Origin: Candidatus Kaiserbacteria bacterium
GTDB taxonomy: Bacteria > Patescibacteriota > Minisyncoccia > Phycocordibacterales > Phycocordibacteraceae
Reading direction: 5' to 3'
Assembly (NCBI GenBank): GCA_963813065.1
Contig: CAWEXP010000008.1
Location: 73,289-137,288 of the forward strand
Length of the DNA stretch: 64,000 bases
Position 1 is the stretch's first letter, and every line of letters starts with the position of its first letter. The translations under genes and the position numbers were made by a program. Below are positions 3,639-61,521 of this stretch, piece by piece. The notes below the pieces were generated by a model, which saw nothing but the letters and a program-made list of their open reading frames with translations, was not told the DNA's origin and did no database searches.

Positions 3639-3662
3639 AATATTTAAACATTTAAACATTTT

Positions 3663-44220: not shown

Positions 44221-45832
44221 TTACTGCACTACCTGCCCATTTAGATATTTATGGTTCTTGTCTTGGGCGTCGTATTTACAACTGATTCCGCAGGAAGGCC
44301 ATTGATAATCAGAAGGTTGAACAGTAGTGAAGGTCGCTGGATCAGCTCCAATCAGCAACTGACCGCCCCAATAAACATTGTTTTTATCTTTTGCGTATGA
44401 GGTGTTTGGTATGTAAGAGAAGGTTACTATATCAACGCCGGGAATCGGAGTAACAGGTTCGGTGCTGCCGTTTGTAAGGTTACCAAGGGCATATGCCTGA
44501 TTCTTATCTTTTGCATAACCTCCTCCCATATACACAAACGTGTTCGGATCGGCTCCCGGTATCGGATAATTACCGAAATATACGTGCACCCCATCCTTTC
44601 CAAGTTCGTAATTTACACCATCGCCAGCAATATAGACGAATGTCTGAGGATCGGCACCTGGTATCACTTGTGCTCCAGGATATGACGAGGGAAAATAGAC
44701 ATATTTGTCGTCTTTTCCGTACTCACTATTGTTGCCGGCAACCCAAGTGAAGGTGGTTGGGTCGGCCCCTTGCACTATTTGCCCATTTTCGTAAACAGCA
44801 GCCTTATCTTTACCGTACCCTTCACCTAAAAAGATAAACGACGCAGGAACCGCGCCCGGGATCTCGCTGTTTTCGAAGTATACATTTTGGGCATCTTTAA
44901 AGTATGGAGTTGTTGAGCTAAGTGAAATAAAAGTTGCGGGGTCTGTCCCTGCGACAACGTTACTCCCGTAGTAAACATTATTTTTGTCTTTGCCAAATAC
45001 ATTACGTAAAGCGTCTTCGTAGAGTATTTGAAAAGTGGTAGCGTCGGCTTGTGGCATGAGAGGGGAGATGCCCCCATCGATATATATAGGGAAACCGATA
45101 TAAACGTGCTTGGCGTCTTTAGAGTAAGAGTCGAGAGGATCGACTCCAAAACTTAAACTCTCGAACGTACCAGGATCGGCACCGTCCACGCGCCCCAGCC
45201 ATTCACCGTCGACGCCTACCTCATATGCGTAGACATACTCCTTATCCTTCGCAAACCAGGAGAATTGATTTTGCTTGTCGTATACTAACGTAAAAGTGCT
45301 TGGATCTGGATTCGCGACTTGGTTATTCGGACCATCATAAACCTCGATTATTGCGCCGCCTTCATAGATGTGTATTGTCTTTAGCAAAGTCTTCAGTTCC
45401 AAATTCTTGCGCGTCAGAGGAAACGACGAAGCTTGCCGCGTCGGCCCCTAGTATCGATGAAGTTGCGTTACCGTAGTAAATTTGACCGTTTCTTTCGGAG
45501 TAGCCCGATGGATTGCCTAAGGGGAGTTCTGTAACTGGTATCCAACGGAAAGGTTTGTTTTGATCCACGACTGTGCTTGAGGTGGCTGTTGCATTAGTCG
45601 ATAGAGGCGCTTGATTCGATACCAATAGATTTATCACTCCTGGTACCCATAGTTTGTATGTAGCAATAAGACCAAGGCCGATGATGATAAGCACAAGCAG
45701 GATGATTCTAACTACTTTTATCGCCATGCTTGGACCTGTTGGTATCAGAGTTGTCGGCGGCTGTGCCGGATTTTGTTGCTCAGGTGAAGGAGGCATACGT
45801 GCTTCAACTCTAGCAGGTTTCGACCGATTCAA
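44221..45832 (-). pseudogene. Membrane-anchored DKNYY-repeat protein, frameshifted
   Basis: ORF 45362..45832 (TM anchor + first repeat) and ORF 44221..45402 (multiple YGKDKxxVY...GADPxTF repeats) overlap by 41 nt in different frames. Confidence 0.55.
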
Positions 45833-45920
45833 AACTCGGTTATCAACTTGCGCAACTTAGGCCTCAAGGTCGCACTAACGCCTCAGGCCTCAGGGTTGGT
45901 CCGATACAAAAGTCTTCGGG

Positions 45921-46003
45921 CGGAGGGGGTGGGACTCGAACCCACAAGGCCTTTCAGCCGCTAGTTTTCAAGACTAGTTCCTTACCATTCGGAGCACCCC
46001 TCC
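45921..46003 (-). tRNA. tRNA-Ser (anticodon TGA)
   Basis: Acceptor GGAGGGG/CCCCTCC, anticodon stem CTAGT/ACTAG with loop CTTGAAA, long variable arm CGGCTGAAAGGCCTTG, T-arm TGGGTTCGAGTCCCA. Confidence 0.85.
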
Positions 46004-46004
46004 G

Positions 46005-46487
46005 TTACTGATGCTTTTTCGATTTACGCAACCAGCTGTGTTGCAAATAATGCTGTTCAGCGTGGCAATTCGGGCAAATCAACTCCAAGTTAGATAGGTC
46101 GTTATTATTTCGATTCTTATCTTTATGGTGCACATGCAGAATTTCAATCCTGTCGTAGCCACACCGCTCACATACTTCGCCTCTTTCGGCGATTAGTCGG
46201 AGTTTTAGGGAGCGCTGATTTTTAACTTTGTCTTTCTTCGGTCGCCCGAGATATGAAATCCCGGCCCTATGTTTATTTGCGCATGCCCGACTGCAGGTCT
46301 TTGCGTTGGCGCTAGCCAAAATCGGAGTCCCGCATACCACGCACGGAGTTTCTATCCTGTTCGCCTTTCCGTAACATGCCTGACTACAAAAGACCCGACC
46401 TTTCTGCAACTCAGCCGGCCGACGATATACCGGCGTACCGCAGATTAGGCATTTTGTATTCGGATTTCTTTTATAATACTCAGACAC
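46005..46487 (-). CDS. HNH endonuclease with Cys-rich zinc fingers
   Basis: ILHVHHKDKNRNNNDLSNLELICPNCH HNH motif. Stop is 1 nt from the tRNA-Ser 5' end. Confidence 0.75.
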   Translation of the reverse strand: MSEYYKRNPNTKCLICGTPVYRRPAELQKGRVFCSQACYGKANRIETPCVVCGTPILASANAKTCSRACANKHRAGISYLGRPKKDKVKNQRSLKLRLIAERGEVCERCGYDRIEILHVHHKDKNRNNNDLSNLELICPNCHAEQHYLQHSWLRKSKKHQ

Positions 46488-46520
46488 TCATCCAGTATAC
46501 CACTCACTACACCGATCAGT

Positions 46521-46793
46521 TTACGCCGGTACTGATGAATGATGCGCCGGCGTGTGAGGGAGGTCTTTGCGGAACCAGATGAGATAGACGATTTCGAGGA
46601 TGCCGAGGGTGTTGATGACGAGGAGGGCGACGAACCACCACTTCTGTCCGCTCCGCGCGGCGTGCCAGAGGGCAAAGCCTTTGAGGATAATGGTCCAGAC
46701 CAGCGCGGCGAGGAGGAATGGCATAAAGAGCCCGACAAACCCGGCAAAAGGGTAGGGGCCATAGATTGGCGAAAACGAGTGTGCGTACATCAT
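46521..46793 (-). CDS. Small membrane protein (DUF5652-like, common in CPR)
   Basis: LKGFALWHAARSGQKWWFVALLVINTLGILEIVYL. Confidence 0.5.
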   Translation of the reverse strand: MMYAHSFSPIYGPYPFAGFVGLFMPFLLAALVWTIILKGFALWHAARSGQKWWFVALLVINTLGILEIVYLIWFRKDLPHTPAHHSSVPA

Positions 46794-46815
46794 GCGGATA
46801 GGATAGCATGGGAGT

Positions 46816-47229
46816 ATGAAATATCTAGGGGTGGATTATGGGAGCAAAAAAGTCGGCCTCGCGCTCTCGGACGAGGGCGGCGCGATGGGATTCCCGCACA
46901 CCATTCTCCCGAACACGCCAAAGTTGATCGAAGAAATATGCGCGCTGATTGCACGCGAGAATGTCGGCGCAGTGGTGATTGGCGACTCGAAAGATTTCGC
47001 CGGCGTCGACAATCCTATTATGAGTGCGGCCCGCGCGTTCGGTGGGCAGATCGCCGAACGCGCGGGTGTGCCGGTCGCGTACGAATCCGAGGTGCTCACC
47101 AGCGCCGAGGCGCGCCGCAAGCCGGCGAAGGAAATGAAAACCCGCGCGCCCAGGGCGCGCGGGAACGTGGACGCCTCGGCCGCCGCGCTCATTCTTACTA
47201 GTTACCTTTCCCATACGCACCATGGATAA
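46816..47229 (+). CDS. ruvX: Putative pre-16S rRNA nuclease / Holliday junction resolvase-like YqgF
   Basis: MKYLGVDYGSKKVGLALSD... RNase H-like N-terminus. Confidence 0.85.
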   Translation: MKYLGVDYGSKKVGLALSDEGGAMGFPHTILPNTPKLIEEICALIARENVGAVVIGDSKDFAGVDNPIMSAARAFGGQIAERAGVPVAYESEVLTSAEARRKPAKEMKTRAPRARGNVDASAAALILTSYLSHTHHG

Positions 47230-47560
47230 ACCGCGCATCAGCATCGAAGAATTTTCTAAGATTGAAGTGAAGGTCGGTACCGTGAAGAGTGCCGAGCGTG
47301 TCCCCGAGACTGACAAATTATTTCGGTTAGTTGTTGATTTTGGTGAAACGGAACCACGACAAATTATTTCCGGCATCGCCGCATATGTGGCCGACCCACT
47401 GTCGCTTATCGATCGCCAGCTCGCCTTCGTGACGAATCTCGAGCCGCGCACCATCCGCGGGCTGGAGAGCAACGGCATGCTCTTCGCGGTCGGCGATGGC
47501 GACTCTTTTACGTTCATGGTTCCCGATCGCGCAGTTCCACCAGGAACTTCTGCGCACTGA
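47222..47560 (+). CDS. tRNA-binding protein (CsaA/Trbp111, Myf domain)
   Basis: KIEVKVGTVKSAERVPETDKLFRLVVDFGE...ISGIAAY is the OB-fold tRNA-binding signature. Confidence 0.75.
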   Translation: MDKPRISIEEFSKIEVKVGTVKSAERVPETDKLFRLVVDFGETEPRQIISGIAAYVADPLSLIDRQLAFVTNLEPRTIRGLESNGMLFAVGDGDSFTFMVPDRAVPPGTSAH

Positions 47561-47561
47561 A

Positions 47562-47616
47562 CGCAACCAAGGTTAAACCTTAAGAGTCTGACCCAAGGTT
47601 TAACCTTGGTTGCGTT
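47562..47616. terminator. Perfect 21-bp inverted repeat with 13-nt loop
   Basis: acgcaaccaaggttaaacctt ... aaggtttaaccttggttgcgt. Confidence 0.4.
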
Positions 47617-48716
47617 ATACTTATCAAATGCCTTCCGTATTTCGCGCACGATTGCACACCGCGTTTCGTCCGCCCCAGTATCTCGCGCCACCGGCGGTCG
47701 GCCTCGATCTCTCGGCGAGCAATTTGAAAGGGGTGCGCCTCTCGCGCGGAACGGGTGGCATCATCCTCGATGCGTATGCCGACGTCCCGATGACCGTGGG
47801 CGCCTTCGCGCGTGGCGAAGTGGTCGATCGTGTGGCGGTTGCCTCCGGCATTACGATTATCGCGGGAAAGCTCGGTGTCAGCTCTGCCGCGGTAGGTCTG
47901 CCCGAGGCGAAATCGTATCTCTTCGAGACACTCGCAAGTGGCAGTTCTAAAGAAGAATGGAAAGTTGCCGTTGAGCAACATCTCGGCGAACTCGTCCCCC
48001 TACCGCCCGTGGAGACTGTGTTCGATATTGTGAACACGGGCCAGGCGAGTTTCGCCGATGCACATGTGGTCGGTATCGGTTTTGCGCACCGCGTCATCGA
48101 AGAAGAGCTCGCGGCTTTTGATGCGGCATCAGTTTCCGTCACCGCGTTCGAGGGCGAACTCTTCGCGATGGCGCGAGCGCTCCTGCCAGCGGGGGACAGC
48201 TCGACGACGCTCATCGTCGACCTCGGCCGCGCGACCACCAAGCTCGGCATCGTCTCCGCGCGCGTGCCGCGCTTCAGCACCACGGTCGCGATCGGTGGCC
48301 ACGCCATCACCCTCGCGGTGCAGAAACACTTCGGCGTCACCGAGGAGGATGCGCGGCGCGTGAAAATTGACTACGGACTCACGCCACCATCCGGCAACGA
48401 GGAATATCTCTCGGCGATTATTTCGACGATTTCTGCAATTCGCGACGAGGTTGTCCAACGTTTTGCGTACTGGCAGAAGACCGCGGCAGTGGGCTCTCTG
48501 CATGAACCCATCACGCATGTCCTGGTCGTCGGCGGCAATGCGTCTATCCGTGGCCTCAGCGAATACTTCGAGAGTGAACTCAAGGTACCGGTTGCCACGG
48601 GTGATGTCTTCACCAATTTCGCACCGCGCGCTACCTGGCTCCCACCACTCTCATACGCCGAGTCACTCGCCTACGCCACCGCTATCGGCCTCGCACTTCG
48701 CTCCTATGATGTCTGA
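47610..48716 (+). CDS. pilM: Type IV pilus assembly protein PilM (actin-like ATPase fold)
   Basis: 368 aa. LIVDLGRATTKLGIV and VVGGNASIRGL segments. Confidence 0.75.
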   Translation: MRYTYQMPSVFRARLHTAFRPPQYLAPPAVGLDLSASNLKGVRLSRGTGGIILDAYADVPMTVGAFARGEVVDRVAVASGITIIAGKLGVSSAAVGLPEAKSYLFETLASGSSKEEWKVAVEQHLGELVPLPPVETVFDIVNTGQASFADAHVVGIGFAHRVIEEELAAFDAASVSVTAFEGELFAMARALLPAGDSSTTLIVDLGRATTKLGIVSARVPRFSTTVAIGGHAITLAVQKHFGVTEEDARRVKIDYGLTPPSGNEEYLSAIISTISAIRDEVVQRFAYWQKTAAVGSLHEPITHVLVVGGNASIRGLSEYFESELKVPVATGDVFTNFAPRATWLPPLSYAESLAYATAIGLALRSYDV

Positions 48717-49260
48717 CCTCACCAATCTCTTACCCGAGGAGCGCCGCCGCGCGCTCGATCGCGGCTATCTCCTCCGGCTCGGTACGGTCGCGATTCTCGC
48801 CGTGGTACTCCTCTTCGCCTGCGCGGCGGCGCTCCTGGTGCCCACCGAAGTGTTTCTCGCGGACGCCATCAATACAAAAAATGCACGGCTCACAGTTCTC
48901 AATAATTCGCTCGACTCCGCAGATGCCGCCGCGCTCTCGGCTCGACTCGCCACACTCGGCAACAATGTGTCTGCGGTCTCGACGCTCGCCACCGTGCCAC
49001 ATGCGAGCTCGGTGATGAGCGAGATACTCGCGATTGTGCATCCGAGCATTGTGCTCACGGGATTCACCTACGTGCCGCCCGTGAAGAAAGCACCCGCAAC
49101 GATCGCGGTGAGTGGTACCGCCGCGACGCGCGATGCACTCCGGTCGTACCAACTCGCGCTCCAGAGCGCACCGTTCGCGAGTGCGGTCGACTTGCCGGTC
49201 TCGGCCTACGCGCAAGATGCGAACATTTCGTTCACCATGACCGTCACCCTTGCGCCATGA
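48706..49260 (+). CDS. pilN: PilN-like pilus assembly protein
   Basis: ATG at 48706 (MMSDLTNLLPEERRR...) followed by a single TM. The track ORF is extended upstream in-frame inside pilM. Confidence 0.55.
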   Translation: MMSDLTNLLPEERRRALDRGYLLRLGTVAILAVVLLFACAAALLVPTEVFLADAINTKNARLTVLNNSLDSADAAALSARLATLGNNVSAVSTLATVPHASSVMSEILAIVHPSIVLTGFTYVPPVKKAPATIAVSGTAATRDALRSYQLALQSAPFASAVDLPVSAYAQDANISFTMTVTLAP

Positions 49261-49859
49261 GATCTCCCACCACCCAAGCATTTCTCGCGCTCGCACTCCT
49301 CGCGCTTACCGTCGTTGGGTACGGCGTGTGGTATGCGACCGTCTCTGCCTCGTCGGCGCAGGCCGCGAATCTCGAGACCCAGATCGAATCGAAAACGCAG
49401 GCCGAGAATCGCGTGGCCGCGGCGCGCGCGACACTCGACGAGATCGCGAGCGAAGAATCGATTGTCGACGGTTACTTCGTCTCGCAAGCGGGCGTGGTCT
49501 CGTTCATCAGTGCCCTCGAATCGCTCGGCACCACGCTCGGTACGAAAGTGACGATTCTTTCGGTGTCGACGGGCGGAACCAAGAACCAACCACAACTCAT
49601 CATTGTGCTCTCGGCCGAGGGCTCCTTTAGTGCCGTTATGCGCACCGTTGGTACCATCGAATTCGCGCCCTACGACCTCACCCTTGCGGGGCTCGCGGTG
49701 CGTAAGAATCCGACGGGCGATTGGACGGCGTCGCTCACGATTACGCTCGGCTCGACCGTGAGCAACCAGCCCTCAGGCTCGGCACCGGCACCAGTCATTC
49801 CGGCGGCGACGAGTACTTCATCGGTCTTCCAGCCTCTGCCGAACCCCCAAGCATCATGA
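49257..49859 (+). CDS. pilO: PilO-like pilus assembly protein
   Basis: N-terminal TM then coiled-coil (LETQIESKTQAENRVAAARATLDEI). Confidence 0.5.
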   Translation: MRSPTTQAFLALALLALTVVGYGVWYATVSASSAQAANLETQIESKTQAENRVAAARATLDEIASEESIVDGYFVSQAGVVSFISALESLGTTLGTKVTILSVSTGGTKNQPQLIIVLSAEGSFSAVMRTVGTIEFAPYDLTLAGLAVRKNPTGDWTASLTITLGSTVSNQPSGSAPAPVIPAATSTSSVFQPLPNPQAS

Positions 49860-50164
49860 AAAACTTTCCCTTCATCGAGCATCTTCGCGCCTGGCTTCGC
49901 CTGGGTGATCGAGCGCATCCCGAGCGAGACTGGTTCGCGCTCGTGACGGTCGTCGCGCTCGTACTCGCTGTTCTCGTCGTCTGGAATCTCTGGGCCTTCG
50001 ACACGGTCGCCGGCGGTGGCACTATTGGTTCGGCTACCTCGGCACCAGCACCAGTAGTGAATCGTTCCTCGCTCGACACCGTGCAAAAAATATTCAGCGA
50101 CCGCGCGACTGAGGAATCGAAGTATGCGACGGGTGTGTATCAATTCACTGATCCTTCGCAATAG
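49856..50164 (+). CDS. Small membrane protein of the pilMNO operon (PilP-like candidate)
   Basis: ATG at 49856. TM WFALVTVVALVLAVLVVW. Confidence 0.35.
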   Translation: MKNFPFIEHLRAWLRLGDRAHPERDWFALVTVVALVLAVLVVWNLWAFDTVAGGGTIGSATSAPAPVVNRSSLDTVQKIFSDRATEESKYATGVYQFTDPSQ

Positions 50165-50195
50165 AACACAAAGTGCGGTAGGGTTTAGCAGTCTC

Positions 50196-50267
50196 GCCTC
50201 TGTAGTTCAATGGATAGAACACCGGACTTCTAAGCCGGTTATGTAGGTTCGATTCCTACCAGGGGCA
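50196..50267 (+). tRNA. tRNA-Arg (anticodon TCT)
   Basis: Acceptor GCCTCTG/CAGGGGC, D-arm GTTCAATGGATAGAAC, anticodon loop CTTCTAA, T-arm GTAGGTTCGATTCCTAC. Confidence 0.85.
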
Positions 50268-50312
50268 CAGCGGTCAGGGCCCCAGTTTTCGTCTGCGAGG
50301 CCTCAAAAATAG

Positions 50313-50328
50313 TTCGCAACCGCGAGGG
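50313..50328 (+). repeat. Direct repeat copy 1 (TTCGCAACCGCGAGGG), candidate att site
   Basis: 18/20 identity with 53890-53909 (agtYcgcaaccgcgagggMt). The pair brackets the toxin-antitoxin plus serine recombinase element. Confidence 0.4.
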
Positions 50329-50454
50329 CTATTCGCGTTGCAGGAGGTCCAAATATGTCCTATAGTGCCAGTAACACTCTGTTCACACCCGCGTCATATA
50401 CACTGTTGTTTACTGGGCTAGATGCGCGACAATAGACACAGAAGACACATAAAA

Positions 50455-50961
50455 ATGGCCTCTACTCTCAACAAGGAAAAGTACACGAACGCGCTCCTGT
50501 ATTTCATTACGGAGTGTGGCAATGAGAAGTTGGGCATTATGAAGCTCAACAAGCTTTTCTACTACCTCGACTTCATCTCCTATCGTGACCGCAAGGCAAG
50601 CGTCACCGGCGAAACATACGTCCATCTTCCGAAAGGCCCACTCGCTTCCTCGCTTGAAACTGAAATCATCGCCTCCGCCCAAAAGGCCAAGCTCATCGAG
50701 CGCAAGGAGGACGAGAGCGAAAAGTACGGCAAGCGGAACCGCTTCCAAGCACTCAAGGAAGCCGATCTCTCATTGTTTGATGAGTACGAGCAAGGATTGC
50801 TCAAGTATCTCTCCTCGACATTCAAGGACTGGAGTACCGATAAAATGGTCGCCCAGACGCACAGCGAAGCACCGTGGGTTTTCTCGAACCCGAGTAAGCC
50901 GCTCGATTATAAGAATGCTGACGACATCGAATTCTTTACGGAACACGCAGTAGCGGCGTAG
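50455..50961 (+). CDS. Panacea-domain (SocA/DUF4065-like) antitoxin-type protein
   Basis: KLNKLFYYLDFISYRD motif. ATG at 50455. Confidence 0.55.
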   Translation: MASTLNKEKYTNALLYFITECGNEKLGIMKLNKLFYYLDFISYRDRKASVTGETYVHLPKGPLASSLETEIIASAQKAKLIERKEDESEKYGKRNRFQALKEADLSLFDEYEQGLLKYLSSTFKDWSTDKMVAQTHSEAPWVFSNPSKPLDYKNADDIEFFTEHAVAA

Positions 50962-50981
50962 GGATTTCGGCTCCTTCTCGT

Positions 50982-51365
50982 ATGGCTTGGCGCGTGGAGC
51001 GGACAGAGAGTTTCGACAGGTGGTGGAAGAAGGAAAAGGTTGAGGAGGCGAACTACAAATACCACAAGCAGGCTCTTGAGGATTTTCAACCGATCTCGCT
51101 CCCGCACAACGTGCAGAGCTGCATTTTCAAGAACACGAGCTTTGAGTGCTGGGTCACGCGGTTGCCGGATAAGATGCGGCAGCAGGGCAAGTCAGGCGGA
51201 TTCCGCGTCGTGCTCGTTCTCGACCTTGAAGAGAAGGTGCTCTGGCTCCAGGGCATATTCCGTCGCGGTCATCTTTCGTGGCAGGGTAGCAGCGGCAAAC
51301 ACGACGATGCATACGATGCTCTCGTGAAGGATTTGGCGCAACAGTTTGTAGAAGCTAAGCACTAA
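50982..51365 (+). CDS. Putative toxin partner (RelE/ParE-like fold)
   Basis: [24 protein letters not shown] resembles the RelE/ParE core. Adjacent to the Panacea gene. Confidence 0.4.
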
Positions 51366-52698
51366 CAATTTCCGCGTCAGCGAGTTTGATTATTCGATCA
51401 TTCAAGATAAGCCGGTCTCTCAGATGCTCCAGCAGCTCCCGCTTCTCTTCCCGGCTACCATTCTTCAGTAGATACTTAGCGTATTTGCGTATGTCCATCT
51501 CCTTGGCCTCGATGGTTTCTGAGGTGCCCTCAACCTCAGCCCGCAGCTTGTTGTACCTCGATACCTCGCGCTCAATCAGGTGTCGTGCCCCGATCTCGTC
51601 GAGGGATATACGGTCGATGAGGGTGACCAGCTGGTCGAGCACCTTTTCCTCGCGCAGATACGGGTTCTTGCACTGGGTATCCTTGGCGCGGGAACAGGAA
51701 TAATAGATGTACGATACCGGCTCTCCGGTACTGAGCAGTTTAGATTTTTCTTGCGCTGTGATGCCTGAGCCGCAGTACCCGCAGAGGAGGAGCTTGGTGA
51801 AGTTCCATTCCTTGAATCTGGTCTTTGGGCGATTCTCCTCTGCGATCTTTTCTTGTACCGCTTGGAATAATTCCTGAGTGATGAGCGGCGTATGCTTGCC
51901 GGTATACCAATTGCTCGAGCCTCGTGGATATTCGAAGACGCCACAGTAGAAGGGATTCTTGAGCATTTTGTATAGGGTAGATAGGTTCATGCTCTTGCCG
52001 ATTCGGGAGGCGAAGTGCACATCGCGCTTGAGCCACCCGTGTACCTTGCGGCCGCTCCAACGCTCGACACCAACTTTCTCAAACACTTGCTTGATGATAG
52101 GGGAGCGGACTGGATCAACGAGTACCTCACAGCGATGATCCTTTCGACCATCATTCAAGTATCCCGTTGGCGCGATGCCAGGCCAGAGTCCCATTTCGAC
52201 TCGCGCTCTGAGACCGCGCTTCACGTTGACGCGCTTGTTGTCGTTCTCGAGCTTGGCCTGCGAGCCGAGAATCATGAGCAAGAACTTCTCATTCGGGTTA
52301 TTGCCGAACCGCTGGCCGTACGTCCTAATGTCCACCAAGTGCTTGCTGTCCATTAAGTCCACGATGCGGCCGAGGTCTCCGGCGTTCCTGCTAATGCGGT
52401 CTGGTGCCCAGGTTAAGATGCCGTTGAACTTGCCCGCCCGCAGCTCGTCCACGATCTCGTTGAACACCGGCCGCGCCCCGGCTTCCTTGGCCGAGTGCGA
52501 TTCGCGCTTCATTTCGACAATCTCCAATTTCTCCTTCTTCGCCAAGGCGAGCATCTCCTTCACCTGGCTCTCGATGCTGAGCACCTGCTGTTCTTCGCTC
52601 TCGGTGCTCTTCCTCGCATACAAGCAGTACCGCACCGTCTGCACCTCCACCAAGGGAGGAGCCGCCCCGAAACCGCCCTGAATCATTGCTGTTTCCAT
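51355..52698 (-). CDS. Large serine recombinase (resolvase domain + recombinase + zinc-ribbon)
   Basis: Resolvase N-terminus [19 protein letters not shown] with catalytic Ser. C-terminal [11 protein letters not shown] zinc ribbon. 447 aa. Confidence 0.9.
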
Positions 52699-52862
52699 AC
52701 ATGTGCCGTTATTGCTAACGGTCTAAGGGATGACGCAACCCCTCACGGGTGTCCAGCGAGGGGCTGTTGGTATCTAAAAGGCCTGTCCCCATGAGCGCTA
52801 CCGCCCTACAAAATGTGAGGTAAAATGGGGGCGTACCCTTAATTTGATTACCACTCGTAATT

Positions 52863-53489
52863 ATGTCTGCTGAAAACCCGTTTGCGAAATCACCAATACG
52901 CGAGGTCACTGCTGAAGACCTTGGTATCCCACCGGAAGCCGAGGCGCTCGTTGCTGCCCCACCACCCGTCGCAGAGACCGCCTCTGAAATTCCTGCGGTT
53001 GAATCAGAGCGTGCTCAGCAAATCGGCAAGCAGATGGAATCCCTTAGCGCGACTGGGGGCAGGTCCGCAGAAAAACTGCGACGCATTGAGATGGAGGCCG
53101 ACCGGCATCCCGAATACTTCGGCGGGAATCCGGAACTGTCTAATCAGTTTTGGACGCGCGTGCAGGAAAAGGCCGCAGAACTCCGCACCGGGCCAGAGCT
53201 GATGCGTAAGAAAGAAGAGTTTTGGGATAAATGGAAGAAGGGTTCGATGATTACGGCTGGCGTAGGTGTGCTAGCTGGCGTTGCGGGAGCCGCTTGGAGT
53301 GCAAAATACGGCTTTGACCACACCTACATGAAAGAAGTTCTCGGGCAATCTCTGAATGTGCCAATGGTTGCCGGATTTGCAACCGCCGCCATTGCGGAGG
53401 GTTCAGCTGGTATTGGGAAGCTCATGGAGATGCTTCGAGGCCAAAAGCGCTCCGATCTCCAGGATAATTTAAGGAGGAATAAAATCTAA
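52863..53489 (+). CDS. Hypothetical protein with C-terminal hydrophobic segment
   Basis: 208-aa ORF. TM MITAGVGVLAGVAGAAW. Confidence 0.35.
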   Translation: MSAENPFAKSPIREVTAEDLGIPPEAEALVAAPPPVAETASEIPAVESERAQQIGKQMESLSATGGRSAEKLRRIEMEADRHPEYFGGNPELSNQFWTRVQEKAAELRTGPELMRKKEEFWDKWKKGSMITAGVGVLAGVAGAAWSAKYGFDHTYMKEVLGQSLNVPMVAGFATAAIAEGSAGIGKLMEMLRGQKRSDLQDNLRRNKI

Positions 53490-53495
53490 AGCACC

Positions 53496-53690
53496 ATGGA
53501 CAACAATCAAAATTTCAACTCCCTCGATTTGCAGCAGATTTTCGAGAGCCTGCCGGACGACAAGAAAGTCGAGTTCCTGAAAGACCTCCAAGAAATCGTA
53601 TCTCTCGGCGATCAGCAGATTTTCGACGTCGAGCGCATCATCGGCGAGACAATCAAGGAATTTGAAGATAAAAAGGCCGCTACAGCATAG
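53496..53690 (+). CDS. Small acidic hypothetical protein
   Basis: 64-aa ORF followed by an intrinsic terminator. Confidence 0.3.
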   Translation: MDNNQNFNSLDLQQIFESLPDDKKVEFLKDLQEIVSLGDQQIFDVERIIGETIKEFEDKKAATA

Positions 53691-53708
53691 TCACTCCCCA
53701 GGAGAAAC

Positions 53709-53739
53709 CCGCCGCGCTAGATAAACGCGGCGGTTTTCT
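53709..53739 (+). terminator. Rho-independent terminator
   Basis: ccgccgcg-ctagataaa-cgcggcgg followed by ttttctg. Confidence 0.45.
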
Positions 53740-53891
53740 GATTCTAGGTATTTGTAGGCATTTTGCGGCCTGCCGCATGAGTGTCTAATGTGTCTAACCC
53801 CTCAAAATGCAACACGCCACAAACGCCCTTTTGGCGTTGCATTCTATATCATTTTGACCCCCGACCCCCTGTCAGATTTGTAAGATTTCAG

Positions 53892-53907
53892 TCCGCAACC
53901 GCGAGGG
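53892..53907 (+). repeat. Direct repeat copy 2 (TCCGCAACCGCGAGGG), candidate att site
   Basis: See 50313..50328. Confidence 0.4.
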
Positions 53908-54135
53908 ATGCACTGGAAACAGGCGAGACACGCTCTAAACGTTAGAATACCCTTATTCTGCTTGCTGGAATCGCTAAAACGAGACAGTGTCCGATATACC
54001 CGACCCGTGTCTCATTTGTCTCATTTTGTACCCGACCGCGAGGCCTCGATCCGGGTGAGCGACTACTCGCCAAACGGCCCTTGTGTTGCCTCACCTGGTC
54101 CAGTTCAGTACAGTGAGGGGGCACAAATAACTGCG

Positions 54136-54232
54136 TGGTGCCGAGGGGGGGACTTGAACCCCCAATCCCTTGCGGGAACTACGACCTGAACGTAGCGTGT
54201 CTGCCAATTTCACCACCTCGGCTTTTGTTGCT
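54136..54232 (-). tRNA. tRNA-Leu (anticodon CAG), CCA encoded
   Basis: Acceptor GCCGAGG/CCTCGGC, anticodon stem CTACG/CGTAG with loop TTCAGGT, long variable arm, T-arm GGGGGTTCAAGTCCCCC, then ACCA. Confidence 0.85.
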
Positions 54233-54247
54233 CGCGTATGCCAGCTG

Positions 54248-54321
54248 TGCGCGGTGAGGGATTCGAACCCCCGACCTTTCGCGTGTAAGGCGATCGCTCT
54301 AACCAACTGAGCTAACCGCGC
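54248..54321 (-). tRNA. tRNA-Val (anticodon TAC)
   Basis: Acceptor GCGCGGT/ACCGCGC, D-arm GCTCAGTTGGTTAGAGC, anticodon loop CTTACAC, T-arm GGGGGTTCGAATCCCTC. Confidence 0.85.
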
Positions 54322-54384
54322 GCACCGCTACACTAGCAAGTAATCAACAGTCCTCCAATGTTTCGAACCCCGGTATAGTATACT

Positions 54385-55092
54385 GTGTTGTATACATCTA
54401 TGAAACGGCAAGAGCGGGACAAGTCGATTTTACTTAGAAAACGTGGCATGTCTCTCGGTGAGATTGCGCGCAGACTCAAAGTCTCAAAAGCCATCGTAAG
54501 TGTATGGGTACGGAGCGTTCCTCTTTCCAAAAAACAACGAGAATCTTTGAATGATCGTGGGTTTAGTATTGGTGCGATAGAAAAAAGAAGGGAAGCGAGA
54601 ATCGCACATACTCAACAGAGGCACCGAAAAGTAATCGATACAGCGAAAACCAGCATCAAGGAAATCTCAAAAACAGATTTAAAACTAATTGGTACGGCCC
54701 TGTACTGGGGAGAGGGTGGAAAGTCTCTGCGAGGCGGTGCGCGCATTGCCAATAGCGATCCTCGCATTATTGTCATAATGATGCGTTTCTTCCGTGAAGT
54801 TTTCTCGGTGCCCGAAACAAAGTTTCGAGGACAAGTGCATACGTTTTCACACCTCAATGCTGGAAAAGCAGAACGATACTGGTCAAAAGTGTCGGGCATC
54901 CCAACTACACAGTTTTATAAGACGTATTCGAAACCAAGTATTGCGAGTCAGGGAAAGAAAGATAACTTGCCAAATGGAACTTTTGATATTTACGTCTCTG
55001 ACACAATCATATTTCTCACCATCCAAGGATGGATTGAAAGACTTGCAGAACTCGGGGCTGAAGTTCCGCATCGCGCGCTCAAGATGGAGTAG
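54385..55092 (+). CDS. LAGLIDADG-type endonuclease with N-terminal HTH (single motif)
   Basis: HTH MSLGEIARRLKVSKAIVSVWV. LAGLIDADG-like LIGTALYWGEGGKS. 64 bp from the tRNA-Val/tRNA-Leu pair. Confidence 0.55.
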   Translation: MLYTSMKRQERDKSILLRKRGMSLGEIARRLKVSKAIVSVWVRSVPLSKKQRESLNDRGFSIGAIEKRREARIAHTQQRHRKVIDTAKTSIKEISKTDLKLIGTALYWGEGGKSLRGGARIANSDPRIIVIMMRFFREVFSVPETKFRGQVHTFSHLNAGKAERYWSKVSGIPTTQFYKTYSKPSIASQGKKDNLPNGTFDIYVSDTIIFLTIQGWIERLAELGAEVPHRALKME

Positions 55093-55098
55093 TATAGG

Positions 55099-55938
55099 TT
55101 GATGAACGAAGTTGCTCGCTACTACGACTACACACTGCCATTTTACAAACTCTTTTGGCATGGCGCGACGCATGCGCTCCACTACGGCATCTGGGATACG
55201 ACAACGAAGACGCATGCCGAGGCGCTTATCAACAGTAATCGGACACTGGCGCAGAGGGCGCGGATAACGAACGCAGATACGGTTCTTGACGCAGGCTGTG
55301 GTGTTGGAGGGAGTAGCCTCTGGCTTGCCAAGCATACCGGAGCGCACGTCACGGGCATCACGGTCAGTTCCCGGCAATGCGAGAAGGCACAGGAGCTCGC
55401 GATGCGCGAAGGCCTTGCATCAAAAACACACTTTCTGGTCCGCGACTACCTCGACACCAAGTTTCCCTCGGAGTCATTCACGGTTGTGTGGGGACTCGAG
55501 AGCCTGTGCTATGCGCACGATAGAGTCGACGCTCTCGCCACCGAACTCTATCGCGTGCTCAAGCCAGGCGGGCGGTTGGTCGTTGCAGATGGATTCCTCG
55601 GTAAATCCGGCAATCTCTCTGAACACGAACGCCGACTCGTGCGGATATTTGAAGACGGATTCGTTCTGCCTCCGATGACTACACCCGAGGCGTTCTCGGT
55701 GGCGCTCGGGCGTGCCGGGTTTAAAAATATAGAAGTGACCGACGTGACAGCGTACATTCTCCCAACGGCCCGCAGGATGTGGCGACTGTGCTTCTGGACA
55801 TATCCGCTCGCGGTTCTGCTGGCGTATCTGCGATTCGTTCCCGAGTTGCTACGAAAAAATCATCGGACTGCCATTGTCCAACGTGAGCTTTTCGAGAAGC
55901 GATCGTTGGTCTATTGTGTTCTCTACGCTGAAAAGTAA
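55099..55938 (+). CDS. Class I SAM-dependent methyltransferase
   Basis: Motif I VLDAGCGVGGSSLWLAKHTGAHVTGITVS. Motif post-I LKPGGRLVVADGF. Confidence 0.8.
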   Translation: MMNEVARYYDYTLPFYKLFWHGATHALHYGIWDTTTKTHAEALINSNRTLAQRARITNADTVLDAGCGVGGSSLWLAKHTGAHVTGITVSSRQCEKAQELAMREGLASKTHFLVRDYLDTKFPSESFTVVWGLESLCYAHDRVDALATELYRVLKPGGRLVVADGFLGKSGNLSEHERRLVRIFEDGFVLPPMTTPEAFSVALGRAGFKNIEVTDVTAYILPTARRMWRLCFWTYPLAVLLAYLRFVPELLRKNHRTAIVQRELFEKRSLVYCVLYAEK

Positions 55939-55962
55939 CCAGTACGTTACCTTATTCTCTTC

Positions 55963-56682
55963 ATGCCCGTTCCCATTACTATGGCTCAAGGACCACTTTC
56001 AGTCGGCATCATCATGGACGGCAATCGCCGCTGGGCGAAAGAGCGCGGGCAGAGCTCCCTCGATGGGCACGAGGCGGGCGCACGACTCCTGCTTACACTC
56101 CTCGACGAGTATCGCGCGATCCGCGACGAGTGGGGCACCGCGCACTATATTTTTTATGCATTCTCGACCGAGAATTGGAGTCGGACCCAGGAGGAAGTTG
56201 CGAATCTGCTCGGCATCTTCGAACGCGCGTTTAAGAGTATTGAAGAGCGACTACCGAAACTGCTCGAAGACGGTGTGCGCGTCCGTTTCATTGGCGACCG
56301 CTCCCGCTTCTCCCCACAACTGCAGGCACTGATGCGTGGCGTGGAAGAAAAAACAAAAGAGGGCACGCGGGGCACCATCGCCATTGCGGTCTCGTATGGC
56401 GGCCAAGCGGACATTCTGCAAGCGAGCAGTCGGCTATTGAAAGAGGGCAAGAAAGAAATGTCTGCCGAGGATCTCTCCTCGGTGCTCTGGACTCACGGCA
56501 TCCCCGCGCCGGACCTCATCATCCGCACCGGCGGCGAACACCGGCTCTCCAATTTCCTCACCTGGGAATCGGTCTACAGCGAACTCTTTTTCATCGACAC
56601 ACTCTGGCCGGACTTCTCTCGCGCCGAACTCGAAAAAATCTTTACCGACTTCAGGACGCGCGAGCGCCGGCACGGGAAATAA
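55963..56682 (+). CDS. uppS: Undecaprenyl pyrophosphate synthase
   Basis: SVGIIMDGNRRWAKERG and FSTENWSR motifs. Confidence 0.9.
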   Translation: MPVPITMAQGPLSVGIIMDGNRRWAKERGQSSLDGHEAGARLLLTLLDEYRAIRDEWGTAHYIFYAFSTENWSRTQEEVANLLGIFERAFKSIEERLPKLLEDGVRVRFIGDRSRFSPQLQALMRGVEEKTKEGTRGTIAIAVSYGGQADILQASSRLLKEGKKEMSAEDLSSVLWTHGIPAPDLIIRTGGEHRLSNFLTWESVYSELFFIDTLWPDFSRAELEKIFTDFRTRERRHGK

Positions 56683-56698
56683 GTGATAGGGTAGAGCC

Positions 56699-57418
56699 AT
56701 GAATCTCCCGATTCTCTATGAGGATGCCGACGTGGTCGCGGTCAATAAGCCTGCGGGACTCGTCACGCACCGCGACGGAAGAACGATAGAAGAAAGCGCC
56801 GACGAGTGGTTCAAAAAGAAGTATTCCGAGGTGACGCTGGAGCGGCCGTACGTGCATCGGCTCGACCGCGATACCTCGGGTGTGTTGGTGTTCGCAAAAA
56901 ATGAAGCGGCGTACGATTTTCTCCGCAAAGCATTTACGGATAGGGACGTGAAGAAAGAATATCTCGCCTTTGTATACGGCGTGCCGAAAGAGAAAAACGG
57001 CACGATTGATTTCGATATTGGCCGCTCGCGAAAAGATTTCCGTTTGCGCAGTGCCCAGCCAAAGGCGCGCGGCACGCTCCGCTCTGCGGTGACGAAGTAC
57101 ACTGTGCTCGATACCGACGAGGGAGGCCAGCACGCCCTCTTGAAGGTGGAGCCCGAGACCGGTCGCACGCACCAGATCCGCGTGCACCTGAAGGCGATTC
57201 ATCATCCAATCGTTTCTGATCCACTCTATGCGCCGAATCAGCCGCACGACCTCGGCTTGAATCGTCTCGGCCTACACGCGTATCAGATTGAGCTCCCGCT
57301 CCCATCCGGTACTCAAAAAATAATCACCGCGCCCATTCCCAACGATTTGAAGATCGCGTTTGCGCAGTTTCCTCAGCAAAGGTATCTTTCAGGACAGGCA
57401 CTGAACGGAGTGAATTGA
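56699..57418 (+). CDS. RluA-family pseudouridine synthase
   Basis: HRLDRDTSGVLVFAKN catalytic Asp motif. Confidence 0.85.
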   Translation: MNLPILYEDADVVAVNKPAGLVTHRDGRTIEESADEWFKKKYSEVTLERPYVHRLDRDTSGVLVFAKNEAAYDFLRKAFTDRDVKKEYLAFVYGVPKEKNGTIDFDIGRSRKDFRLRSAQPKARGTLRSAVTKYTVLDTDEGGQHALLKVEPETGRTHQIRVHLKAIHHPIVSDPLYAPNQPHDLGLNRLGLHAYQIELPLPSGTQKIITAPIPNDLKIAFAQFPQQRYLSGQALNGVN

Positions 57419-57419
57419 T

Positions 57420-57683
57420 TTGGAACACGGTCAAAAAGTTCTGCTGGAGCGACTTGTCACGCATCTCGTTATCACGCACCCGTTGCCCTGGCGTATCGAG
57501 TCGGATTGGACGCAAGAAGTAACTGCCGCCGACGGTACGATCATTGTGAAGTGTCTGACTACGGAAGAAGCACAAGCACTCATCGACTTGGCCGAGAAGA
57601 AACGGAAGGAACTGGACGAACCGAGCGAAGCAGAGCTCATTAGTCAATTCCGCGCAGTATTTCCTCGGCAGAAGTGTCGATAA
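57420..57683 (+). CDS. Hypothetical protein
   Basis: 87-aa ORF immediately following rluA. Confidence 0.3.
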   Translation: MEHGQKVLLERLVTHLVITHPLPWRIESDWTQEVTAADGTIIVKCLTTEEAQALIDLAEKKRKELDEPSEAELISQFRAVFPRQKCR

Positions 57684-57752
57684 ACCAATCACGGCGGGCC
57701 AAGTGCCCGCCGTTTTGCTTTTTTATGAGGCCAGTGCTACAGTGCGCGGACT

Positions 57753-58220
57753 ATGAAGGTGATGACGCCAGTCAATGTCGAGGGGCGCGCCAAGCTCGGG
57801 ATCCGCCCGGGTGACACTGTGCGCGTCACCCAGAAGATTGTCGAGCTCAAGAAGGGCAAGGCCGCCAACAAGAAGGAGGTCTCGACCAAGACCGCGCGCA
57901 CCCAGGTCTTCGAGGGCCTCGTGCTGGCGGTCAAGCACGGGCGGGAAGCGGGCGCGATGTTCACCGTCCGCGCGACCCTCTCGGGCGTCGGCGTCGAGAA
58001 AATTTTCCCGCTCTATTCGCCCGCCATCGATTCTATCGAGATTGTGAAGCGTTCCAAGGTCCGCCGCGCCAAGCTCTACTTCATCCGCGAGAAGGCGGCC
58101 AAGGTGGTCCGCCGCCAGCTTAGGAACGCGCGCATGATGCACGTGAAGAGCGACGAGGAGATGCCCGTTGCTGAGGTTGCCGAGGCAGAGGCACCAGTCG
58201 CCGCAGAGGTCGCGGCATAA
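57753..58220 (+). CDS. rplS: 50S ribosomal protein L19 with Ala/Glu-rich C-terminal extension
   Basis: IRPGDTVRVTQKIVELKKGK...FEGLVLAVKHG...FTVRATLSGVGVEKIFPLYSP...KVRRAKLYFIR. Confidence 0.85.
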   Translation: MKVMTPVNVEGRAKLGIRPGDTVRVTQKIVELKKGKAANKKEVSTKTARTQVFEGLVLAVKHGREAGAMFTVRATLSGVGVEKIFPLYSPAIDSIEIVKRSKVRRAKLYFIREKAAKVVRRQLRNARMMHVKSDEEMPVAEVAEAEAPVAAEVAA

Positions 58221-58285
58221 GAGAAACATCCGGTTATCCACCGGATTTTTGTTAAAATAAACTGGTATACGCTTATACTTGAGGT

Positions 58286-58990
58286 ATGGCGAAACGCGGG
58301 GCAAAGCCGAAGGGGAGGGAAGTGAGGTGGTCATCAGAATTGGCATATGCAGTTGGGTTGATGGCCTCGGATGGATGCTTATCAAGTGACGGAAGGCATC
58401 TCCTCTTCGTTTCAAAAGATATTGAGCAAATCCGGAATCTTAAGAAGTGTCTCGGATTAAAAGCGAAAGGTGAAAATCATCGACCGGGGCGGAAACGAGG
58501 AGTCGGCATTTGTTACCGCATCCAGTGGAGCGATGTCATTTTGTATAGTTTTTTGTCAGATGTTGGACTTACTCCACACAAATCACGCACTCTCGGGCCA
58601 CTCAACATACCCGATGCATATTTCTTTGATTTCTTGCGCGGAAGCTTCGATGGCGATGGTTCTTTTTATAGTTATTACGACCCGCGCTGGAAGTCGAGCT
58701 TCATGTATTACCTGTCTTTCAATTCAGCGAGTCTCGCCCATACGCTCTGGATACGTACAGTGCTCAAGCGCCTCATCGGAGTTCGAGGGCATGTTTCAAG
58801 AACGAAGCCGGACACACAAAAAAAGAATCCCATAGCAAGTTTACGCTATGCAAAAAAGGAGGCCTTGGTTGTTGTGCGCGCGATGTATGCGATGCCAGAT
58901 GCGCCACACCTCTCGCGTAAGAAGTTGAAAATCAAGCGTACATTGCGTATAGTGGGAAAGTCTTTGCTTGCACAGTCAGCAAGAGATTGA
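58286..58990 (+). CDS. Double-motif LAGLIDADG homing endonuclease
   Basis: Motifs LAYAVGLMASDGCL and FLRGSFDGDGSF. Stop 9 nt before tRNA-Leu(GAG). Confidence 0.75.
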   Translation: MAKRGAKPKGREVRWSSELAYAVGLMASDGCLSSDGRHLLFVSKDIEQIRNLKKCLGLKAKGENHRPGRKRGVGICYRIQWSDVILYSFLSDVGLTPHKSRTLGPLNIPDAYFFDFLRGSFDGDGSFYSYYDPRWKSSFMYYLSFNSASLAHTLWIRTVLKRLIGVRGHVSRTKPDTQKKNPIASLRYAKKEALVVVRAMYAMPDAPHLSRKKLKIKRTLRIVGKSLLAQSARD

Positions 58991-58999
58991 CAAGATAGC

Positions 59000-59084
59000 G
59001 CCCGGGTGGCGAAACTGGCAGACGTACCACCTTGAGGTGGTGGCGCCCGTTAAGGGCATGGAGGTTCGAGTCCTCTCCCGGGCA
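59000..59084 (+). tRNA. tRNA-Leu (anticodon GAG)
   Basis: Acceptor GCCCGGG/CCCGGGC, anticodon stem CCACC/GGTGG with loop TTGAGGT, long variable arm, T-arm GGAGGTTCGAGTCCTCT. Confidence 0.85.
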
Positions 59085-59165
59085 CAACAGTCAGCACGCG
59101 GTCTTTAGACCGTTTGGCCCTAAGTAGGCCGTAGTTTTGGTGCGGTACCTTTAGGGGTGTTTGAC

Positions 59166-59200
59166 GACAAAACCGCGCGATATTCATCGCGCGGTTTTGC
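59166..59200. terminator. Hairpin terminator (aaccgcgcga / tcgcgcggtt) flanked by A- and T-runs
   Basis: acaaaaccgcgcgatattcatcgcgcggttttgc. Confidence 0.4.
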
Positions 59201-59210
59201 TATGGTCGCT

Positions 59211-60032
59211 CTAATTCTCGAGTGCGATCTTTCGGTCCTTCATAATAATCTTTCCTTTCAGATGTCCGAGCAGTTCTCGTTGCTCGGCTGGCGATCCGTT
59301 CTCAAGCAGGTACTTCGCATATTTCCGCACGTCCATCTCATCCGCTTTCACCTTCTCGCTTTTATCCTGCATCGCCGCTCGCAGTTTGTTGTATCGGGAT
59401 ACTTCTTTCTCGATAAGATGCCGCGCCCCTATCTCGTCGAGATTGATGTTGTCCAAGAGAGCCAGCAGTTGCTCGATCAATCGATCCTCTCGGATATAGG
59501 GATTCTTGCACGCACGATTCTTGGACTTGGAGCAGGAGTAGTACACGTAGAAGTGGAAGCCACCATCAGCGGCATTTTTGTGTTTCTCTTGAGACGTAAT
59601 GCCACTCCCACATACTCCGCAGATCATGATCTTAGTGAAGGTCACGTCGTGCGTCTTGAGCTTTGGACGGCTCTCCTCCGCAAGCTTCTCCTGTACCGCT
59701 TGGAAGAGGTCGCGCGTGATGAGTGGGGTATGCTTGCCGGTATACCAGTTGCCCGAGCCCTTGGGATACTCGAAGACGCCACAGTATAGGGAGTTCCTGA
59801 GCAGATTATAAATATTGCTCAAGCTCATGGTCTTATTCGTGCGCGATAAGAAGTGCAGGTCGCTCTTGAGCCAGTGGTATATCTTTCTGCCGCTCCACCG
59901 TTCATTGCCCACCTTCTCGAACATCTGTTTCATCACTCCCGAGCGCAGAGGGTCGACGAGCATTTCGCATTTGTGGTCACTCCGTTTGTCATTGAGGTAT
60001 CCGCAGGGCGCGAGTCCTGGCCAGAGGCCCAT
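59211..60032 (-). pseudogene. 5'-truncated large serine recombinase remnant (paralogue of 51355..52698)
   Basis: 273-aa ORF alignable to the C-terminal ~270 aa of the intact recombinase ([27 protein letters not shown] vs [27 protein letters not shown]). No resolvase catalytic domain upstream. Confidence 0.7.
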
Positions 60033-60118
60033 CTCGGCCCGTGCTTTCCCTTCAAGGGGCGGGGTACGGTTAATAAAAATAGGCGTAGCCGCCGTGATAC
60101 GATACTAGTAATTGCTCT

Positions 60119-61516: not shown

Positions 61517-61521
61517 TTACC

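Follow-up and report, generated by a model that had tools for sequence, protein, structure and literature searches.

What lies between two tRNA genes of this Patescibacteria contig, what moved it there, and where does it begin and end? The window, by which we mean the whole stretch of 64,000 nucleotides that was analysed, carries an intact tRNA-Arg(TCT) gene on the + strand (50196-50268; ARAGORN, Rfam tRNA 69.6 bits), and five open reading frames (ORFs) separate it from a tRNA-Leu(CAG) gene. One of the five encodes a large serine recombinase (LSR), and two others a toxin-antitoxin (TA) pair. A preliminary description of the locus had proposed a 3.6-kb serine-integrase element that ends in a pair of direct repeats resembling attachment (att) sites. 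Our results keep the element, but move its ends. By comparison with its relatives, the mobile unit is 50269-54124, 3856 bp long; it starts with the base after the tRNA gene and contains the repeats in its interior. We consider it likely, with a probability of roughly 0.75, that this unit is an integrative element of a family in Patescibacteria (Kaiserbacteria/Paceibacterota-like genomes), whose LSR joins the attachment site of the element (attP) to the 3' boundary of a tRNA gene. On the names of the LSR homologues, the genome of the window also belongs to the Patescibacteria (CPR; Minisyncoccia, Paceibacterota, Kaiserbacteria).

The edges are defined by a second copy in a different genome. Locus L196, which was reached via a relative of the 208-aa protein p208, carries the element after tRNA-Gly(GCC), beside the gene of a CCA-adding enzyme. 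Amino acid identities with the window are 92% for the LSR and 94% each for p208 and the small protein p64. At the nucleotide level, blastn returned two segments, the first pairing window positions 50247-50333 with 2764-2850 of L196, and the second 51376-54124 with 2889-5668, at 85% identity over 2787 bp. The homology opens at the first base after the tRNA (50269), continues unbroken through the right repeat copy, and stops at an invariant GGGGCAC (54124). At the two L196 junctions, ...tatccgcac is joined to AGCGGTCAG and ...gagggggcac to CAGCTATTTG. Since the element at tRNA-Gly(GCC) has the same ends, 50269-54124 represents one unit that has occupied two tRNA sites, which bears out the earlier proposal of a serine-integrase mobile element adjoining tRNA-Arg(TCT). 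The left edge (50268/50269) lies 42 bp to the left of the left repeat copy, and the right edge (54124) 215 bp to the right of the right one.

The two ends of the element are conserved in a wider circle of relatives. The tRNA-proximal end, here called module A (50269-50330, + strand), comprises AGCGGTCAG (50269-50277), the left copy of a short repeat, R2 (CTGCGAGGCCTC, 50293-50304), and the left copy of the 20-bp repeat R1 (50311-50330). All members with at least 70% LSR identity keep the same order: gcac followed by AGC[AG]GTCAG, about 15 nt, R2 (GACCGCGAGGCC or a clade variant), 7 nt, R1, a terminator hairpin, and the LSR stop codon. Wherever such an LSR is present, module A lies directly 3' of the tRNA, and this holds for at least 12 different tRNAs. 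The junction was seen at Gly-TCC, Gly-GCC, Gly-CCC, Glu-TTC, Arg-TCT, Arg-GCG, Arg-CCT, Ile-GAT, Leu-CAG and Met-CAT, and in the window also at Leu-GAG. Because it stands behind a dozen tRNAs, module A is part of the element rather than of the host, which places the left edge at 50268/50269.

The distal end, module B (53910-54124, + strand), contains GAGACA/TGTCTC repeats (for example at 54007-54025), the right copy of R2 (ACCGCGAGGCCTC, 54035-54047), and a terminal arm formed by the last 25 nt (CCAGTTCAGTACAGTGAGGGGGCAC, 54100-54124). It is conserved in six elements. The far ends of the window element, L001, L007, L089, L071 and L090 align over 125 bp (L090) to approximately 240 bp, all finish in an invariant (G/A)GGGGCAC, and are unrelated beyond it. 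The terminal arm resembles the 3' end of a tRNA: GTTC occupies the place of the T-loop, GGGGCAC closes the arm, and roughly half of the positions agree with tRNA-Arg(TCT). In L026, the arm matches the 3' end of tRNA-Arg(GCG) at 18 of 24 positions. The arm is identical at Arg-TCT, Gly-TCC and Gly-GCC sites. Tandem arrays occur in L001 and L026, where another element begins right after the tRNA-like arm. To the left of module B, a conserved non-coding stretch (53740-53889, + strand), which includes GTGTCTAATGTGTCTA (53781-53796), is 92-95% identical to L001.

The LSR gene (51355-52698, − strand) encodes 447 aa with Resolvase, Recombinase and Zn_ribbon_recom domains, all scoring over their Pfam cutoffs (PF00239, 75.6 bits; PF07508, 48.9; PF13408, 37.3), and with a Y-A-R-K-S-T motif at residues 27-32. 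It matches the PHROG 95 integrase (E 5e-68), and its nearest solved structures are those of SPbeta YokA/SprA (E 1.6e-13) and the A118 integrase. Identity to phage integrases is below 30%. The best NCBIfam match is CcrB (E 1.3e-28); the protein is nevertheless not a Ccr protein, scoring 99.9 bits against a cutoff of 900 for CcrB and 49.6 against 700 for CcrA. The homologues are 441 aa long and homology begins at 51376. No second recombinase is encoded inside the element.

Relatives of the LSR, which number in the thousands, were drawn from at least 8000 scored candidates, the best 120 of which are 59-95% identical. The contexts of the closest relatives, together with 80 metagenome loci, gave 58 non-redundant loci. 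In all 58, the LSR gene and the first tRNA on its downstream side converge (binomial p = 7e-18), and in ten of the 15 loci with an LSR at least 69% identical, the two are 104-132 bp apart. Like module A, LSRs of at least 70% identity occur at no fewer than 12 different tRNAs. LSRs that are less closely related (57-63% identical) are mostly located at tRNA-Ser and tRNA-Gln, and are accompanied by a different end module.

As the preliminary description had suggested, we looked for the empty site in related genomes, and it was found. The neighbouring PilM protein was used to scan species-representative genomes, which returned 80 loci with PilM 48-60% identical and, commonly, the gene order pilM ... 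tRNA-Arg(TCT), tRNA-Leu(CAG), tRNA-Val(TAC), tRNA-Leu(GAG), tRNA-His. Among the 67 loci that reach a further tRNA, the distance from tRNA-Arg(TCT) to the next tRNA is 71 bp or less in 39, frequently only 0-40 bp, and the other 28 carry inserts of 0.1-5.4 kb after tRNA-Arg(TCT). To the right of the element, the window continues with an 11-bp spacer (54125-54135), tRNA-Leu(CAG) (54136-54222, − strand), tRNA-Val(TAC) (54247-54321, − strand), and a gene for a 235-aa protein at 54385. Locus L052 has exactly this order and orientation without the element, namely tRNA-Arg(+), tRNA-Leu(-), tRNA-Val(-) and a homologue of the 235-aa protein, with a gap of only 58 bp between tRNA-Arg and tRNA-Leu. The short gap, in the 39 relatives and in L052, is the empty site. 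In the window itself, the junction expected before insertion would be tRNA-Arg ...GGGGCAC joined straight to AAATAACTGCG. Look-ups of exact proteins (the window LSR, the PilO-like neighbour, and the 100%-identical toxin P0121) matched zero contigs.

If the ends of the element lie elsewhere, what are the direct repeats? R1 reads AGTTCGCAACCGCGAGGGCT at 50311-50330 and AGTCCGCAACCGCGAGGGAT at 53890-53909 (+ strand), with 18 of 20 positions matching. The repeat is as real as first described, but each copy lies one base to the right of the positions then given (50310-50329 and 53889-53908), and the left one begins 42 nt, not 45 bp, after tRNA-Arg(TCT). A direct repeat of this quality appeared in two of 200 dinucleotide-preserving shuffles of 50196-54222. 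At up to three mismatches, R1 has just two copies in the window; a weaker third copy is located at 54028-54046. The short motif GCGAGGCCTC also recurs, as had been noticed, but at 50295-50304 and 54038-54047 rather than at 50297 and 54049.

Weightier than the shuffles is that the R1 pair is a property of the family. It recurs in L001 (copies 4.7 kb apart), L007 (7.6 kb), L089 (9.8 kb), L071 (5.0 kb) and L196. In these sister elements, the distance from the left edge to the left copy is always 42-43 bp, and that from the right copy to the right edge about 215 bp. The concern that the repeats might belong to a dispersed repeat family unrelated to the element can be set aside, as R1 is specific to this element family, with two copies in the window and further ones in the sister elements. 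The right copy has GTCCG in every element, the left copy mostly GTTCG, and the T/C difference between the copies is thus a family feature. Furthermore, R1 varies with the LSR clade (AGTYCGCAACCGCGAGGG in the window, AGTGCGATACCGTGTGG in L071, GGTTCGGTACCTTCCGG in L093). It is similar to the terminal arm and to genuine tRNA 3' ends, for example GGTTCGATACCGTGAGGGGTG in L096, and R2 in turn resembles the 3' half of R1.

The role of att-like ends, which had been assigned to R1, does not agree with these comparisons. Homology with L196 and five other sister elements begins at 50269 and ends at 54124, and the right R1 copy is missing from L090 and present only in degenerate form in L003, both of which retain the terminal arm. 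With the repeats, the size of 3.6 kb also falls. As far as the alignments tell, R1 and R2 are conserved sub-terminal motifs in direct orientation, similar to tRNA 3' ends, and not junctions. Most likely they would serve as extra recombinase-binding (accessory) sites or represent fossil att arms; taken by itself, the accessory-site reading is a tentative one. A reaction between the two R1 copies inside the element may also take place. For annotation, the lesson is not to take direct repeats for att sites just because they neatly flank an integrase gene.

How could such a unit be inserted? We propose that the LSR would join an attP of the form ...CAGTTCAGTACAGTGAGGGGGCAC next to AGCGGTCAG... to the 3' boundary of the tRNA gene. 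The reconstructed attP junction would be GAGGGGGCAC followed by AGCGGTCAG, and the target site (attB) in L196 would be a tRNA-Gly ending in ...ccgcaCCAgcta. attP and target would have nothing but GCAC in common, which consists of the final bases of the acceptor, the discriminator A and the C after it. In the window, the two junctions share GGGGCACA (50262-50269, and 54118-54124 plus the following A), and neither shows a long target duplication, only the GCAC core. A crossover after the discriminator would leave the tRNA intact and replace nothing but its 3' trailer. The element-terminal arm of attP would imitate a tRNA 3' end (GTTC of the T-loop, then GGGGCAC), so that after insertion a tRNA-like end would face the downstream DNA. 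Both the catalysis by the LSR and the exact crossover dinucleotide are what we infer from the sequences. A crossover inside the tRNA, in the style of tyrosine integrases, was considered and rejected: the tRNAs next to LSRs of 85-95% identity differ in their acceptor stems, which are intact, and the far-end arm does not vary between different tRNAs.

Several observations weigh against this proposal. The empty sites come from relatives at about the family level (PilM 48-60% identical) and not from near-identical strains. Among the sister elements we found no conserved small protein or recombination directionality factor. Inspection by eye revealed no clear dyad symmetry or inverted half-sites around the reconstructed attP and seven inferred attB sites, for both candidate crossovers. 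Also, the host side of attB (B') has no conserved sequence across the seven sites, which is unusual for characterised LSR integrases. Finally, the left and right R1 copies share private substitutions in L001, L007, L089 and L071 (not in L196), as would fit recombination between the copies. This last point, together with the 18/20 match in the window and a 21/21 match in L007, is what one would expect if the R1 pair were the true attL/attR of a unit of about 3.6 kb, and the outer 42 bp and 215 bp a landing pad that was already present at the tRNA. In ECC/SCC, for instance, islands moved by LSRs can have direct repeats of some 50 bp on their flanks (PMC6222049). However, the supposed pad sequences occur at 12 or more tRNAs, always with the LSR or its remnant, their divergence tracks that of the LSR, and no solo pad was present among approximately 190 loci. 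The loss of the right R1 copy in L090 and its degeneration in L003, next to a retained terminal arm, are difficult to reconcile with a pad, and two separate site-specific reactions would be needed. We hold this explanation to be improbable.

The similarity of the motifs could also have another origin, in that the locus grew by accretion of tandem units. Each unit would end in a pseudo-tRNA 3' end (R2-left, R1-left, R1-right, R2-right, terminal arm), only the central one would carry genes, and the repeats would be fossil junctions without function. The genuine tandem arrays of L001 and L026 are in line with this, as is the fact that all five motifs are direct, tRNA-3'-end-like and mutually similar. 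The order and spacing of the motifs are, however, kept at only 72% LSR identity, an analogous layout of two motifs exists in the clade of 57-63% identity, and the motif sequence shifts with the LSR clade. The kept layout and the clade-linked change argue for selection over decay, and accretion is in our opinion an unlikely origin. A last alternative would take the LSR out of the process altogether. The region between the tRNAs would be a recombination hotspot filled by other means, and the LSR a passenger, or a domesticated invertase or resolvase. Unrelated inserts at the tRNA-Arg(TCT) flank of other genomes and neighbouring tRNA genes that flip orientation would suit such a scenario. It would leave the convergence of LSR and tRNA in 58 of 58 loci, the base-precise junctions, and the conserved ends travelling with the LSR without a cause; moreover, the same element is found at two different tRNAs and contains no other recombinase. 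We regard this scenario as very improbable. Integration by the LSR at the 3' boundary of the tRNA therefore remains our preferred reading.

A further step, to which we would give slightly less than even odds, concerns target recognition. The LSR family might read a generic tRNA 3' end (T-arm plus acceptor strand, ending in GCAC) as a near-single half-site. The imitation tRNA end would regenerate the landing site, so that islands stack, and R1 and R2 would be recombinase sites that control synapsis and direction without a separate directionality factor. Recognition of a single half-site would allow near-identical elements to land behind many tRNAs. If true, this would rank among the main routes by which the tiny genomes of Patescibacteria gain genes, and the enzyme would be a naturally multi-target serine integrase. 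Should the target rule be confirmed, integrase engineering could gain a new specificity class, and organisms that resist genetic manipulation an integration tool. The genomes of Patescibacteria are very small, and mobile elements with ends known to the base have rarely been described in them. Here, one is defined to the base, together with a whole family that ties LSRs, whose normal targets are single sites within protein-coding genes, to the 3' boundary of many tRNA genes. In the full-text literature collection that was searched, there was no description of this LSR family in Patescibacteria.

Among known systems, the element appears to behave most like the SCC/ECC cassettes and the tycheposons. 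LSRs (the Ccr recombinases) move the cassettes of SCCmec and of the Enterococcus cassette chromosome (ECC) to the 3' end of a conserved gene, where the cassettes carry direct repeats and form tandem arrays (PMC6222049). The window element similarly is a small LSR-moved island with variable cargo at the 3' end of an intact conserved gene, with direct repeats at or near its ends and tandem arrays in the family. In contrast to Ccr cassettes, which target rlmH, it targets the 3' boundaries of many tRNAs; it has one recombinase instead of a CcrA/B pair, resides in a Patescibacterium, and has its repeats inside the ends and not at the junctions. Tycheposons of Prochlorococcus are tRNA-adjacent cargo elements that form additive islands, also at tRNA-Arg(TCT); 27 of 937 have an LSR, most use tyrosine recombinases, and many carry replication genes (10.1101/2020.12.28.424599). 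Shared with them are the position next to a tRNA, the cargo, a site-specific integrase, and tandem islands. This is a resemblance in working and not membership, as tycheposons are defined in cyanobacteria. Unlike them, the present element belongs to another phylum and has neither a tyrosine recombinase nor replication genes; in its family the LSR is the rule, and close copies occur at many tRNAs.

Other comparisons are more partial. The LSRs of phages (A118/LI, SPbeta SprA, phiC31, Bxb1) have the same three-domain architecture. Their usual target is a single specific site within a protein-coding gene, at which both half-sites can be recognised, whereas in this element only the tRNA side of attB is conserved. 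Islander-type islands, which are moved by tyrosine integrases, share the tRNA 3' end as target, the integrase gene by the tRNA, the tRNA-3'-like far end, and the tandem arrays. In contrast, none of the five ORFs of the element has a Phage_integrase domain, the far-end tRNA-like arm is the element's own and not a displaced fragment of the local tRNA, and the crossover would fall outside the mature tRNA.

The TA pair lies in an insertion of its own (50334-51375, + strand), visible as a blastn gap against L196, which has a 38-bp terminator in this position. The antitoxin (50455-50961, + strand, 168 aa) is of the PanA type, and its SocA_Panacea domain (Pfam PF13274, 54.5 bits against a cutoff of 25.7, E 2.6e-14) spans 1-112 of the 113 profile positions. 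The toxin gene (50982-51365, + strand, 127 aa) overlaps the LSR stop region with its last 11 nt. Sequence models did not recognise the 127-aa protein, as Pfam RelE scored 18.8 bits, below the cutoff of 27, and there was no NCBIfam, PADLOC or PDB sequence match. Its AF2 model, based on an alignment of 39 sequences, reached a pLDDT of 91.7 and a pTM of 0.86. The top Foldseek match in the PDB was RelE (1wmi; E 2e-4, TM 0.71 target-normalised), next to HigB2, YafQ and YoeB, and 17 of the 19 top matches were RelE, HigB/HigB2 or YafQ toxins. By its predicted fold only, the protein is assigned as a putative toxin with the RelE fold of the RelE/ParE superfamily. The Pfam domains and this predicted fold uphold the gene content given in the preliminary description (Panacea antitoxin, RelE-like toxin, 447-aa serine recombinase, two small ORFs). 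Proteins with a Panacea domain have an established role as antitoxins against toxins of many folds (PMC8832971). As in PanAT systems, a Panacea-domain gene stands immediately upstream of a small toxin gene in a conserved two-gene module (PMC8832971); here, in contrast, the pair is known from its genes and the predicted toxin fold, with the toxin below the Pfam RelE threshold.

The lack of the TA pair in L196 indicates that 50334-51375 is a secondary insertion. Furthermore, other Patescibacteria (L190-L195) have the same PanA/127-aa pair without an LSR, and its surroundings are of three different kinds. In L190-192 it is convergent with a xerC-like gene, and in L193-195 it stands in another context. 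The nucleotide homology to TA pairs elsewhere covers exactly 50455-51365, that is, the two ORFs. In these comparisons, the pair is a later addition outside the conserved element. What had been called the element's own addiction module is a TA pair, but one that L196 does without and that occurs elsewhere without the LSR. Inserted between the left repeat and the LSR gene, it replaced the terminator and extended the LSR by its last six residues, which are read from the antisense strand of the toxin 3' end. The pair may stabilise the island or defend against phage. In L190 (8001-9283), L191 and L192, the toxin gene runs into the 3' end of the xerC-like gene, which encodes a tyrosine recombinase and is convergent with it, just as it overlaps the 3' end of the LSR gene at 51355-51365 of the window. 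PADLOC had zero defence-system matches among the six proteins scanned, i.e. the five element ORFs and the neighbouring 235-aa protein.

The two remaining ORFs are on the + strand. The first encodes p208 (52863-53489, 208 aa), which has two glycine-rich hydrophobic segments near its C-terminus and no family match, and which was found in L196 and in none of the other loci. The second encodes the acidic p64 (53496-53690, 64 aa), also without a family match, and is followed by a terminator-like hairpin (53703-53739). The cargo of sister elements includes a diversity-generating retroelement (bAvd plus reverse transcriptase; L003, 6288-7698) and an ABC transporter (L071, 15428-17212).

The non-coding parts of the element have features of their own. 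Just 5' of the PanA start, TAGACACAGAAGACAC (50433-50448) is an 88% inverted match of GTGTCTAATGTGTCTA (53781-53796). An Rfam scan of 45000-60000 detected nothing but tRNAs, and a structured RNA in module B was not supported by RNAalifold on six sequences, the covariation term being positive (+0.78). The one clear paired change, from GAGACA/TGTCTC to the GGGACA/TGTCCC type (TGCCC-type TGTCCC) in L007, is equally compatible with inverted protein-binding sites. All of these repeats in L007 shift together, as for sites of a co-evolving protein. The module B motif GTCTCATTTGTCTCATT (a 17-mer; 54007-54025 in the window) was found in 22 IMG/VR contigs (L168-L189), usually with 19-21 identical bases; a link to viruses was rejected, as the contigs have neither the LSR nor further homology to the module.

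The 3' flank of tRNA-Arg(TCT) is an insertion hotspot also for other DNA. At least two further types of insert start there, with CTAGTGCTAATTCAAATGACCGAG... and ACGCTAGTGAGACCGACCGAG..., respectively. Such inserts lie right after tRNA-Arg(TCT) in L008, L023, L031, L053, L073 and L075, and the comparison of inserts also covered L038, L157 and L165. The CTAGTGCTAATTCAAATGACCGAG type also accompanies LSRs of 57-60% identity at other tRNAs, and follows the terminal arm of L001 as a tandem array. In L026, a tandem array lies 3.9 kb after tRNA-Arg(TCT), where a first element without an LSR of the family ends in a tRNA-Arg(GCG)-like arm (CAGTTCGGTTCCTGCGGAGAGCAC), and module A and the LSR of a second element come at once. 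The tRNA cluster that follows pilM varies among the relatives L009-L087 in the orientation of its tRNA-Leu(CAG) and tRNA-Val(TAC) genes (+/+, +/-, -/+, -/-), which points to repeated inversions of single tRNA genes.

Two loci show members of the family in decay. L029 was considered as a possible solo remnant and rejected, because it is a decayed element with its far end deleted. Its 546 bp between tRNA-Arg(TCT) and tRNA-Leu(CAG) (12633-13178) retain module A, the terminator, a small ORF and the last ~55 LSR codons, which indicates that such elements decay in place. The window itself has a second, decayed member at 59086-60047, directly after tRNA-Leu(GAG) (59000-59085). Its parts are module A (in which GTGCGGTACCTTTAGGGG resembles R1), a terminator, and a fragment of the LSR that corresponds to residues 164-441 at 64% identity, without the catalytic domain. 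Genes for Ig-domain/dockerin and cohesin proteins (60119-63890) follow on its 3' side.

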